Below are positions 20,578 to 62,075 of a stretch of 64,000 bases of DNA, one piece after another (position 1 is the stretch's first letter; each line of letters begins with the position of its first letter). Position numbers and translations under genes: made by a program. The notes beneath the pieces were generated by a model, which saw nothing but the letters and a program-made list of their open reading frames with translations, did not search any database and had not been told where the DNA came from. Origin of the DNA: a virus; the IMG/VR virus record IMGVR_UViG_3300033233_000019, positions 34,913 through 98,912 of that record; one strand, 5' to 3'.

Positions 20578-20943
20578 ATGGCTAATAGATTACCTGATGG
20601 CGAAGCTTCTTGTAATTCGGTTTATGATAACTACATTCAAAACTCCAAAAGACGGGGTTTGTCGTTTGAGCTAACCAAAGAAGAAGCAAAAAGTCTGTTT
20701 ACATCGAATTGTTATTATTGTGGTGTTGAGCCATCAAAATTTCGCCAGCCTAAAAACAGGATTCGTTCAGGATTCATGTACAACGGTATCGACCGGGTAA
20801 ACAATGAAATTGGGTACACGGCAGATAATTGTGTAACATGTTGTTTTGTCTGTAACCGCATGAAATACATTTTGTCGCAAAAAGAGTTTTTGGAACATAT
20901 AAGCCGAATTGCAGCTTATAGGATTGGCGGATTAAATGCCTAA
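20578..20943 (+). mobile_element. HNH endonuclease (CYYC...NGIDR.NN..GY..NCV.CC..CN..K type)
   Basis: Motifs seen; paralog of 60847..61449. Confidence 0.85.
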
Positions 20944-43434: not shown

Positions 43435-44007
43435 ATGGCAAACACAAAAATTTCAGCTTTAACAAATGGCAATCCCGCACAATCCGGTGACTTGATTCCT
43501 ATCGCTCGGGCAGGTTCTAATTTTTCAATAACTGCGGGGAGTGTCACTGCGTTGGCTACAAAAAGCATAACTGTGCATCTAACTAGTTCTGATATTTTAG
43601 CTCTTAATTCCATTCCTTTTGAAATTGTGCCTGCTCCCGGTCCCGGAAAAGTTATCGTACCTTCGATGATAAAGTGGTCTTATGTCTTTGATACTCAAGC
43701 TTATGTCGGCGGAAGCGACTTATTCTTAATTTTGAATGCTAATTCAAATACATTTATCTTCTCGACTGTAAGTGCTTCCAGTGTGACTAATACTGCGATA
43801 GCTTCGGGATTTATTGAAATGAATGAAAGTGTAAAAGGAATCACATCTGTAATGGCTGCGGAAGACACGTTTGGTTATGTGCTTTCTAATCCCAACGCGT
43901 TAATGACGAATATTCCTTTGATGATTTTTGCTTCTGGAGCAGGATTTACGATAGGCGATGGCACTCTTGATATAAGCGTCGTCTATACCATCGAAGACAT
44001 GCCATAA
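43435..44007 (+). CDS. Tail-fibre-like protein (MANTKIS family), copy 1
   Basis: KISAL...DLIPIAR fibre N-terminus. Confidence 0.65.
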   Translation: MANTKISALTNGNPAQSGDLIPIARAGSNFSITAGSVTALATKSITVHLTSSDILALNSIPFEIVPAPGPGKVIVPSMIKWSYVFDTQAYVGGSDLFLILNANSNTFIFSTVSASSVTNTAIASGFIEMNESVKGITSVMAAEDTFGYVLSNPNALMTNIPLMIFASGAGFTIGDGTLDISVVYTIEDMP

Positions 44008-44048
44008 ACAAAGTTCCTACCGGATTTTGAAGAAAGAGGGAAAATAAA

Positions 44049-44180
44049 TTGTGGGAATTCCAACAGTCAACGGGCACGATTCTTCACAACGGAACCGTGA
44101 AATTCTCCGGCTACGCTGGTAGCGGCGCAGGAGTAATTCTTTTGGAAAACAGCGACATCTTATTGTTGGAGATTCAGTAA
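44049..44180 (+). pseudogene. Chimeric ORF: Tlde1/DUF2778-like N-terminus fused to LLE.SD.LLLE tail
   Basis: TTG start with GAGG RBS; MWEFQQSTGTILHNG...GYAG.GAG then VILLENSDILLLEIQ. Confidence 0.5.
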
Positions 44181-44767
44181 TGGCGAATACTAAAATTTCA
44201 GGACTCACAGACGGCAATCCCGCACAATCCAACGATCTCATTCCTATCGCGCGCGGCGGTGCTAACTTTTCGGTTTCAGCAGGCAGTATTTCGTCCTTGA
44301 CGGAGCAAGTCGCCGTTGTACCCGTCAGTGCTGCACAATTGAAGGACACGCTGGCGAATCCTATTGTGCTGATTCCCGCACCGGGGGCGAACGAGGTTAT
44401 CGTACCTACACAAATTCAAATCGGATATATATTCAACGGAACCCCATTTAGCAGCCCAACGGATGGGGCAGCCTGTAATGGGGCATACAATGTCAGTGGG
44501 ACGCTTATTACTACATCGTCAACTAGAGACGACGATGCGGTATGGGCGGCGACATTAGCCACTTTCTCTGGTCTTACTTCATTACTAAAAAATGCGGCGG
44601 CAAATGCAAACACGATTGAGTATAACATCCTCACAACGAGTGATGCACCATTGGAACAAATAAAGGGTCTTGGGCTGTTGATTATCAATGAAGGTTCAGA
44701 AGACTTCAACGCCGGAAATGGCTCACTGATATTCACGATTCGCTACCGCATCATTACGTTGGTGTAA
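44180..44767 (+). CDS. Tail-fibre-like protein (MANTKIS family), copy 2
   Basis: Paralog of 43435. Confidence 0.65.
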   Translation: MANTKISGLTDGNPAQSNDLIPIARGGANFSVSAGSISSLTEQVAVVPVSAAQLKDTLANPIVLIPAPGANEVIVPTQIQIGYIFNGTPFSSPTDGAACNGAYNVSGTLITTSSTRDDDAVWAATLATFSGLTSLLKNAAANANTIEYNILTTSDAPLEQIKGLGLLIINEGSEDFNAGNGSLIFTIRYRIITLV

Positions 44768-59686: not shown

Positions 59687-59983
59687 TTAGTCACCGATCA
59701 TCGAGTAGGAATAGTCGCCAGCAATTCCTACATCCTTCAACGGACGAGTATTGAAGAAACTTCCAAGGTCAGGGTACTTGACTTCCACAGAGTCCCCATC
59801 AAATTTGATGCTGTCGGCAACCAAGATGAAGTTGTAGGCCGACCAATTACGCAACGCTTGCCAGAACCGCTCAGTCGGGTGCGCTTTGCAGTAGGCGGCG
59901 AAGCTTTCCAAGACCTTATTGTTTTTGTTTTCCGGCTGTCCATCGTACTCTCTGCCGTATCCATCACTCGCTCTGTATGGCAT
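59687..59983 (-). CDS. Hypothetical protein
   Basis: YC..HP.ERFWQALRNW. Confidence 0.6.
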   Translation of the reverse strand: MPYRASDGYGREYDGQPENKNNKVLESFAAYCKAHPTERFWQALRNWSAYNFILVADSIKFDGDSVEVKYPDLGSFFNTRPLKDVGIAGDYSYSMIGD

Positions 59984-59984
59984 G

Positions 59985-60293
59985 TTAGTTCACCGTCCTC
60001 GATTCAAAATCTTCAAACATCTTGTAGCCGACTTCCGTGATGGCGAACACGCCGAACTCACGATTATTGTTGATCCGTGATTGAGCGATGCTTTCCTGAA
60101 AATCCTTCGACACGTTCTGCACGTATCCAAGACCTTCCAGTTCGCCAATCTCACGCATGTCCTGACGAATGCGCTTGGCTTTTTCTTCGGAATCTTTATT
60201 CGACTCAAACATAACAACGAAGACTCGTGTCGGCCCATTCGCCGCCGTGTTGAGCGTGTCATATTGGTACTTCGTTAGCTCAAGGATGCTCAC
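59985..60293 (-). CDS. Hypothetical protein
   Basis: GGAGG RBS. Confidence 0.65.
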   Translation of the reverse strand: MSILELTKYQYDTLNTAANGPTRVFVVMFESNKDSEEKAKRIRQDMREIGELEGLGYVQNVSKDFQESIAQSRINNNREFGVFAITEVGYKMFEDFESRTVN

Positions 60294-60508: not shown

Positions 60509-60537
60509 ATTCTACCACTACTCGTCAGTCTTGTCAA
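60509..60537 (-). promoter_or_regulatory. Sigma70-like promoter
   Basis: TTGACA-17-TAGAAT with TGn extension. Confidence 0.8.
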
Positions 60538-60850
60538 CATCAAAATTCAGGTCGCCCATCCAAGGCTCGATCACAGCGTGTACATTTGTCTCAAGCCAGA
60601 CCGCCTTGGACTTCTTCGCCAATAGCCCGTCAATCGCCTTAAACGCCTGTTCTAGCCCCTGCCGGATGCCTGTATGCCACTTACCCCGATACTTCAGCGC
60701 CATGCGCCAGTCGCCAATATCGTTTAACGGTTTCAGTGTCGCCAAGACGTGAGCGGCCTCTAATCGGTAACCCGTCCCGGCCTGAACCCATGCCCACTTG
60801 CACAGCGGCTCCGGTTGCTTTTTTGCTGGACGAGTGACTATTAAGCTCAC
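60518..60850 (-). CDS. Hypothetical protein (GTG start coupled to HNH stop)
   Basis: GTGA overlap; N-terminus duplicated at 61408..61449. Confidence 0.7.
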   Translation of the reverse strand: MSLIVTRPAKKQPEPLCKWAWVQAGTGYRLEAAHVLATLKPLNDIGDWRMALKYRGKWHTGIRQGLEQAFKAIDGLLAKKSKAVWLETNVHAVIEPWMGDLNFDVDKTDE

Positions 60851-61449
60851 CTTGTTCGCCAGCCATTTCTCAAGCAATCTGTCATACTATGCCACTCAGG
60901 GTAAGTAAACATGGACGATTTTCCACGATTACATCGCCAGCAGCACACTACACAATTCGGCTCGCTGTAGCCAAAATTATTGTTTTTACGATCTAAATTG
61001 TGCTTTGCACCGTTTTTGGTAATAGCGAAGCTTGACCATGAAACTTTAGCATCACAGTAATGGCAATTATGTTGTTTAGTAAACCTTAAAAACTCTTCAT
61101 AAGTTATAGTACAAGTGATTGATCTGTCTTTAGCACTATGTACTAAGTAGTTGTAAAGTGCTTCATATGGACGAAGCTTGTTGCCCTCTCCCTTTAGGCA
61201 ACCACAACTTCTAGTCTTGCCTCTTCTAAGGTGATCCGACCGAACAACGACTTGCTTGCCACACTTGCATTCACACAGCCATCGTGTTCTATGTTTGAGC
61301 AATTCTTCAAACTTTAGCACCGTCAGTAGGCCGAACTTCTGCCCTAATAGATTTTTGATTGCTGGCATTCTTCGCTCTTTCTTGTTTTTCTTGTTCACGA
61401 TAAATTCTTCAGGCTGCTTCTTAGCGGGTCTGTTAACGATTAGTGGCAT
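60847..61449 (-). mobile_element. HNH homing endonuclease fused to the neighbour gene's first 14 codons
   Basis: GQKFG.LTV, WLCECKCG, SCGC, CHYC, LDRKNN..GY..NCVVCCWRCN. Confidence 0.9.
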
Positions 61450-61793
61450 ACGGTCAACGGAGGCGTCTTCATGATTTTGTCGATGATGCTACCCATTGTT
61501 TCCTCCGTTTGTATGTGTTGAACTGCATGTTTAACGGAAATTCCACACGCATGTACTTTGCCGTGTACCATAGACCACCCTGTGTCGCTGGCCGGATGTG
61601 TTCTTTGACGCCTCGCAACGTCACAGCACACCACTGACGCCCTCTAATACTCAAGTGTGGCGCAAACGGCTTTGCAGCCGCGTGCCAGCCCGGTCTAAAT
61701 GCGAATCCCGGTGTCGGTACGGATTCGGCCTTGAGCCAGACTCCGGTATTGATCACCCGGCTTCGGTCAATGAACAACGGCCCATACGAGCCA

Positions 61794-62075
61794 TCACGCC
61801 GATGCCGCAGGAGTTTGAACGCTCTGACGGTTTTTGCGCTCTTCCTCACGCTGTTTCTTCTCCTGTTCACGGTAGACTCCCGCATTCAAATTGAAATGAA
61901 TCTGCACCTTCTGAGCGTCAGTCAACGCATCATAAGGCTTGTTATGATCCTGCTTGGCGTACTTGTCGAGACGCGCCCAATTACGCACTAGAACATCGGA
62001 AGGTTTCACGTCCCAATCACAACGCAGGTAGACGATGTAAAGCGGCTTGCCAAGATGCTTAGTTGTCTTGCTCAT
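61794..62075 (-). CDS. Hypothetical protein
   Basis: GGAG RBS. Confidence 0.55.
   Translation of the reverse strand: MSKTTKHLGKPLYIVYLRCDWDVKPSDVLVRNWARLDKYAKQDHNKPYDALTDAQKVQIHFNLNAGVYREQEKKQREEERKNRQSVQTPAASA

Follow-up and report, generated by a model that had tools for sequence, protein, structure and literature searches.

An HNH homing nuclease gene between two copies of its target gene's start in a phage genome

A small phage gene, conserved and here called gene X, has an HNH homing endonuclease gene lodged in its 5' end, between two differently spelled copies of its first 14 codons. The most probable reading, to which we assign a probability of about 0.7, is insertion behind codon 14 of X of a cassette of ~599 nt (61407..60809, minus strand), which comprises a leader, the nuclease gene and a foreign start for X, and whose entry stranded the resident start upstream. 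A second case of the same geometry was found in the large terminase gene of a crAss-like contig, at which nuclease-free alleles are available for comparison.

Two differently spelled gene starts flank the nuclease

The locus was analyzed in a 64,000-nt stretch of DNA (the window, to which positions refer unless stated otherwise) which covers bases 34913-98912 of an IMG/VR virus record; the record has 98,912 nt and is rated complete. The whole window is contained in one run only, a sediment metagenome. On the minus strand, the ATG at 61449 opens a 200-aa ORF with the N-terminus MPLIVNRPAKKQPE, which continues into an HNH endonuclease and stops at the TGA at 60849-60847. Gene X, 110 aa long, starts at the GTG at 60850 with the N-terminus VSLIVTRPAKKQPE, and ends at 60518. 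The nuclease stop and the GTG of X overlap as GTGA at 60850-60847, with two bases in common, precisely the junction that an earlier note on this DNA had described. The upstream copy (61408..61449, minus strand; MPLIVNRPAKKQPE) is open in frame into the nuclease ORF, and is interpreted as the relic of the first 14 codons of X. The downstream copy (60809..60850, minus strand; (V/M)SLIVTRPAKKQPE) provides the working first 14 codons of X, and is interpreted as cassette-borne.

The two 42-nt copies share 12 of 14 residues if both initiators are counted as Met (11 of 13 otherwise), 25 of 42 bases, and a single codon out of 14 (AAG, at position 11); coordinates, translations and codon counts all agree with what had been noted before on the paired starts. 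Similarity runs from the start codon through codon 14, and gives way to EFIVNKK in the upstream and PLCKWAW in the downstream copy. Synonymous choice is possible at 11 positions, at which 3.9 identical codons are expected if choice is random and one is seen (P(<=1) = 0.048), so that the silent divergence of the copies is saturated, and only marginally beyond. The downstream copy had been called recoded: the difference in codons holds, and the spelling would most simply reflect ordinary divergence of a donor allele rather than designed recoding. A transposon target-site duplication was considered as well, and is ruled out by a 42-nt repeat at 60% identity in which the protein sequence is kept.

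All six frames of the whole 98.9-kb genome were searched for pairs of 14-aa windows no more than 1.5 kb apart that agree at 11 or more residues. Besides this pair, the scan retrieved only a few others, whose DNA identity is higher and which for the most part are repeats of paralogues or low-complexity sequences. When the N-termini of all ORFs of the genome were compared, only this pair and one pair of tandem paralogues emerged, the latter beginning with MANTKISALTNGNP and MANTKISGLTDGNP (window 43435-44220, both strands). The match between the two gene X starts is not due to chance.

Gene X

Homologue and profile searches identify gene X (60518..60850, minus strand), the target gene, as a conserved small phage protein. 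Three close homologues were found, and a profile search collected 45 family representatives of ~105 aa, confirming that the gene whose 5' end houses the nuclease is real and conserved. Family members are ~35% identical overall and share a conserved N-terminal motif, many starts having the form (M/V/L)S(L/I)IV(K/T)xPxKK, while P at position 2 also occurs. Since both the S2 and the P2 forms are represented, both copies are bona fide N-termini of the X family, and conservation of the motif explains why 12 of 14 residues are alike in two alleles saturated at silent sites. Alignment with the homologues covers the whole of gene X, starting at residue 1, and shows the gene to be intact, bearing out the idea that the target gene had been restored whole.

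The structural model of X is confident (pLDDT 83.6), and predicts a five-stranded sheet plus helices. Residues 1-18 have low model confidence, which would place the insertion point in a flexible tail. A Foldseek search of the model against the PDB gave no match, and VIA-align returned only Z scores of 5-6.6, AP2 and WGR domains being among the ties, hence no clear solved fold. No DNA relatives of the locus or of X were found in phage records by blastn and tblastn, and no X locus was found when X and its alignments were searched against IMG/VR, JGI metagenomes and GTDB genomes.

The nuclease and its start

The core ORF of the HNH homing endonuclease (60847..61368, minus strand; 173 aa from M28, starting MPAIKNLLGQKFG) was delimited by gene call, homologues and domain matches, and comprises a Cys-rich part for DNA binding at the N-terminus, and a His-Me finger at the C-terminus. 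Its assignment to the HNH endonucleases, already proposed in the earlier note, is well supported by the match to phrog_374 (HNH endonuclease; E 3e-24), by 633 homologues, and by the similarity of residues 88-172 to the HNH restriction enzyme PacI (3ldy; E 4.5e-5). Cys, His and Asn positions are invariant in 19 homologues, the invariant residues listed being C102, Y104, C105, D126, R127, N138, C142, C143, C146, N147 and K150; together with the phrog_374 and PacI matches they place the protein in the HNH (His-Me finger) class, defined by a beta-beta-alpha-metal motif with conserved His/Asn and Cys pairs. A Pfam search of the nuclease gave no match. Read depth over the nuclease (60807-61340) is lower than over X, but is not evidence, because the contigs counted are at only 80% likeness.

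For this contig, the called gene product (P0005) is 173 aa long and begins with M28 (ATG 61368). The two closest homologues, P0006 (82% identity) and P0007 (65%), are also 173 aa long and begin at the same Met. The 27-codon extension of the 200-aa ORF is thus an add-on, formed by 14 X-like codons and by a purine-rich leader of 13 codons. The leader (61369..61407, minus strand; 39 nt, EFIVNKKNKKERR if translated) contains a weak ribosome binding site, GAG, 6 nt before ATG 61368; the probability that it is open in frame by chance is estimated at roughly 1 in 5, so its openness is weak evidence. Given a nuclease start of its own at M28, as used by the gene call and by the closest homologues, the in-frame fusion to the upstream copy proposed earlier is no more than possible: the frame is open, and a fused product may be made. 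Genes of the intergenic seg/mob type likewise would have their own start, here M28 as backed by the 173-aa homologues; yet 14 codons of gene X lie upstream of this nuclease, which sets the insertion point inside the gene.

Initiation at the relic start may depend on a small ORF located immediately upstream. ATG 61449 itself is not preceded by a Shine-Dalgarno sequence. An 18-codon ORF read from the sequence (MGSIIDKIMKTPPLTVCH; 61440..61508 including the Shine-Dalgarno sequence, minus strand) has its ATG at 61496, preceded at a distance of 5 nt by a perfect GGAGG (61506-61502), and its TAA at 61442-61440. With this stop 7 nt beyond ATG 61449, ribosomes probably come to the relic start by termination-reinitiation. 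The statement that the element had captured the ribosome binding site of the gene is accordingly too loose: what the relic start has is an overlap with the stop of an ORF endowed with a strong Shine-Dalgarno sequence. The segment ACGGAGG (61508-61502) can pair with CCTCCGT (61463-61457), hiding the Shine-Dalgarno sequence of the 18-codon ORF; RNA folding around this ORF is not significant (z-score 0.84).

The same geometry in a terminase gene

Sixty-five loci of the same nuclease clade were fetched, and flanking peptide repeats were sought at 63 of them. L098 was the one clear case, with 9 of 12 residues identical, the maximum in 120 mismatched pairs being 8 of 12. L098 is a crAss-like fragment, and its nuclease, also phrog_374, is 40% identical to the nuclease described above. 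The gene upstream stops at position 1172 of the fragment, and the relic start, MFELDISEINT followed by seven unrelated codons, begins at ATG 1175, 2 nt after that stop. The TGA of the relic ORF overlaps the nuclease ATG at 1228 (ATGA). The nuclease ends at 1980, and the large terminase gene (terL) starts at 1968, inside the nuclease 3' end, with MFQLDISSINT.

The L098 terminase gene has 24 nuclease-free relatives in IMG/VR, which were used as comparison set. In 23 of them terL starts where the L098 relic lies, a few bases past the upstream stop; the closest relative, L118, has an extra small ORF at the relic spot. This ORF (L118:2301-2515, ~70 aa, MEMNYKK...) lies between the upstream gene and terL, and its stop overlaps the terL start. 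All 24 relatives are nearer in sequence to the relic than to the cassette copy, matching 22-28 and 18-25 of 33 nt, respectively, and codon 2 is TTT in all of them as in the L098 relic, TTC in the copy in use. L098 and its nearest relative are 96.8% identical in the upstream gene and ~93-97% identical from nt 211 of terL onward, and only 78% identical over terL nt 1-210 (63-97% per 30-nt window). A divergent segment between near-identical flanks indicates that the L098 nuclease arrived with a foreign gene start of ~200 nt, and that the resident start was stranded. The comparison of empty alleles set in advance, which expected them to carry the upstream codon set, could thus be run at the terL gene of L098, and came out as predicted both in position and spelling.

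Polarity of the insertion and alternative explanations

The layout at gene X is that of a gene-end-replacing element, with a nuclease inside the gene, two copies of the gene end and an intact host ORF. Which of the copies is resident is a separate question. A reverse polarity, in which the downstream copy is resident and the nuclease inserted just upstream of X carrying a relic from an earlier host, is unlikely. Residues S2 and T6 of the closest homologues P0002 and P0003, and also of P0125, recur in the downstream copy and are not matched in the upstream copy, and the latter, as said, lacks a Shine-Dalgarno sequence. S2 and T6 are expected, however, in any copy still serving X, under either polarity. 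The upstream copy has N at position 6, found in none of the family N-termini listed (T in the closest relatives), which fits the relaxed constraint of a copy no longer serving X. The downstream copy shares the GTGA bases with the nuclease ORF, the two thus forming one physical unit, and its GC3 (0.38) is like that of the nuclease (0.40) and unlike that of the body of X (0.68); the match is weakened by the fact that GC3 is often low at gene starts. At L098 the upstream copy, again contrary to the reverse order, agrees with nuclease-free alleles in place and spelling. At gene X itself the case for a resident upstream copy is thin, and would rest on analogy and on weak composition signals. Two further contigs touch the edges of the insert. 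In one from run X5, X is joined from 60817 to 61806 without a nuclease; the letters between the two sides are unknown, and the neighbour gene is skipped too. In one from run X3, the nuclease side aligns to exactly 61407, the predicted left edge, and then leaves, a weak match, since the side is only 30 long.

The upstream codons might alternatively be what insertion of the nuclease and a deletion left of the first of two tandem X paralogues. Tandem paralogues do exist elsewhere in the genome (window about 43435/44180), but no two of the four listed X homologues are on one contig, the relic ends cleanly at the start of the nuclease leader, and the same geometry recurs at a terminase gene present in single copy; we regard this origin as very improbable. 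Still less can be said for a self-splicing element in which the nuclease would reside, the upstream copy representing exon 1. Phage HNH nucleases are often found in group I introns. Here no Rfam family was detected at E <= 1 except for one sub-threshold sRNA hit, in agreement with the earlier proposal of homing without splicing, and X has a start of its own, its alignment with the homologues beginning at residue 1; nor is the element an intein, because the nuclease reading frame is closed by a stop codon and differs from that of X. Accidental resemblance and a chimeric assembly may both be practically dismissed. The record is a metagenome assembly, but an independent sediment study provides a 443-nt contig which crosses the nuclease/X junction (60657-61099) at 87.6% identity, with 55 differences and no gaps, implying that the layout is inherited and not an assembly artefact; as to chance, no other flanking pair in the genome-wide scans has so little DNA identity.

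A model for start replacement and its frequency

The cassette preferred here would consist of a short leader, the nuclease gene, and foreign X codons 1-14 fused to the nuclease 3' end, the foreign start probably deriving from the X allele of the donor phage itself. Because the foreign start reads on in frame into the remainder of X, and shares bases with the nuclease stop through its GTG, translational coupling keeps X whole, and splicing is unneeded. The stranded resident codons, placed behind the resident initiation signals and in the frame of the nuclease, may feed ribosomes into the nuclease. Judging from sequence, the nuclease would cut nuclease-free X alleles near codons 14/15, repair would copy the cassette, and the different spelling beside the junction would protect the occupied allele from cutting. 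The relic was probably formed on entry of the cassette into a genome sharing with the donor only the target gene: the right side of the break would have been repaired by homology and the left joined illegitimately, resident codons to the left of the cut surviving, so that the relic end would mark the break. Afterwards the whole insert could home normally.

The position of nuclease stops relative to the next gene start was surveyed at 39 clade loci: stop and start overlap at 24, and are within 20 nt at 7. The frequency with which the nuclease stop overlaps or abuts the next start suggests that nuclease and gene start travel as one unit, as in the co-conversion seen in intron-less homing. Relics are in contrast rare, being found at one of 63 other clade loci and at one of the five paralogues in this genome, and the layout is therefore sporadic. 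The four further HNH paralogues of the same clade (32-48% identity), located at window 20617-20865 (plus strand) and at 26377-25874, 21358-21098 and 778-464 of genome C1, have no flanking peptide repeat, and no comparable flanking repeat was found at upstream-gene loci and remote-nuclease loci (L002-L040). Both relics are connected through their reading frame with the start of the nuclease, the one at X by fusion and that of L098 by ATGA, which hints at selection for borrowing the initiation site of the target. A recurrent class of start-replacing HNH cassettes, which would land in the first 10-15 codons, bring a foreign start and have the stranded start drive nuclease translation, the relic end corresponding to the cleavage site and the jump occurring into a genome sharing only the target gene, is a tentative generalization, to which we give slightly less than even odds.

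Relation to known mobile nucleases

The closest parallel is offered by the mORFs of fungal mitochondria, which form gene hybrids at atp6 in Allomyces macrogynus, and at atp6, atp9, cox2 and nad3 in Glomus (PMC3630166, citing Paquin et al. 1994). In mORFs as here, an endonuclease ORF is located inside the host gene beside a duplicated gene end, and splicing is unneeded; in the mORFs the inserted end is diverged in DNA and nearly identical in protein, and the native end matches that of element-free relatives (PMC3630166). Differences are evident. mORFs replace the 3' end of the gene and strand the native C-terminus downstream, whereas the 5' end is replaced here; they encode LAGLIDADG or GIY-YIG enzymes in organelles, in contrast to an HNH enzyme in a phage; and only here is the stranded start linked to translation of the nuclease. 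Comparable too are the WHO elements found at FBA1 in Torulaspora and Lachancea yeasts (Coughlan et al. 2020, PMC7282813; bioRxiv 10.64898/2026.08.13.744650), which replace the 3' end of a nuclear eukaryotic gene, encode an intein-like endonuclease, and leave clusters of old ends. Allele-specific cleavage has been shown for WHO elements, and is predicted here from the spelling of the two copies.

Among phages, intron-less homing is known for the free-standing seg and mob endonucleases of T4 (SegB, PMC2330249; mobE, PMC2790892). By analogy, the element at gene X would be a free-standing phage nuclease with its own start, which cuts a neighbouring conserved gene and has flanking sequences copied along with it (co-conversion). 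Unlike the nuclease analyzed here, T4 seg/mob genes lie between genes and are not accompanied by a duplicated gene start. The T4 mobA/gene 60 cassette likewise has additional sequence within its target gene (bioRxiv 10.1101/2022.08.31.505936). According to the citing accounts, mobE of phage Aeh1 splits nrdA into two working pieces, rather than leaving one gene restored (PMC10448857, PMC8351571). The phage literature features intergenic seg/mob genes, introns, inteins and one split gene. A literature search found no phage report of gene-start replacement, in line with the earlier view that replacement of gene ends is known from fungal mitochondria and not as well described in phages; the yeast WHO elements are to be added to the comparison.

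If the reading is correct, a free-standing phage nuclease can occupy coding sequence without recourse to an intron, an intein or a split gene, and a route is suggested into genomes which share only the target gene with the donor. Relic starts would then be scars from which the cleavage site can be read, and would betray foreign segments in essential genes, the terminase gene among them, with consequences for recombination maps, gene calling and phage phylogenies. The coupling of relic and nuclease start, through fusion or ATGA, suggests that when and how strongly the nuclease is expressed is borrowed from its target gene.

Neighbouring genes and X-like domains

The upstream neighbour gene (phrog_12224; 61469..61885, minus strand) ends 19 nt before the relic start. 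Its homologues, of 100-110 aa, cover ~70% of it and end ~20 codons (61469-61530) short of its own end.

In three related phage records an X-like domain forms the C-terminal domain of a superfamily-2 helicase of 560-600 aa (L041:145-1878; L042:2349-4151; L048:2518-4194). Each helicase gene is followed immediately by homologues of window genes 59985-60293 and 59687-59983, which in this genome come after X; no such helicase was found in this genome by tblastn. Seven stretches resembling the helix region of X were found in P0143 (1040 aa), and P0004, a 60-aa call, corresponds to X in the C-terminal half only. At 60509-60537 on the minus strand, the last codons of X are overlapped by a near-consensus sigma-70-type promoter (TTGACA, 17 nt, TG, TAGAAT; 11 of 12 positions), which is directed into the genes downstream of X.
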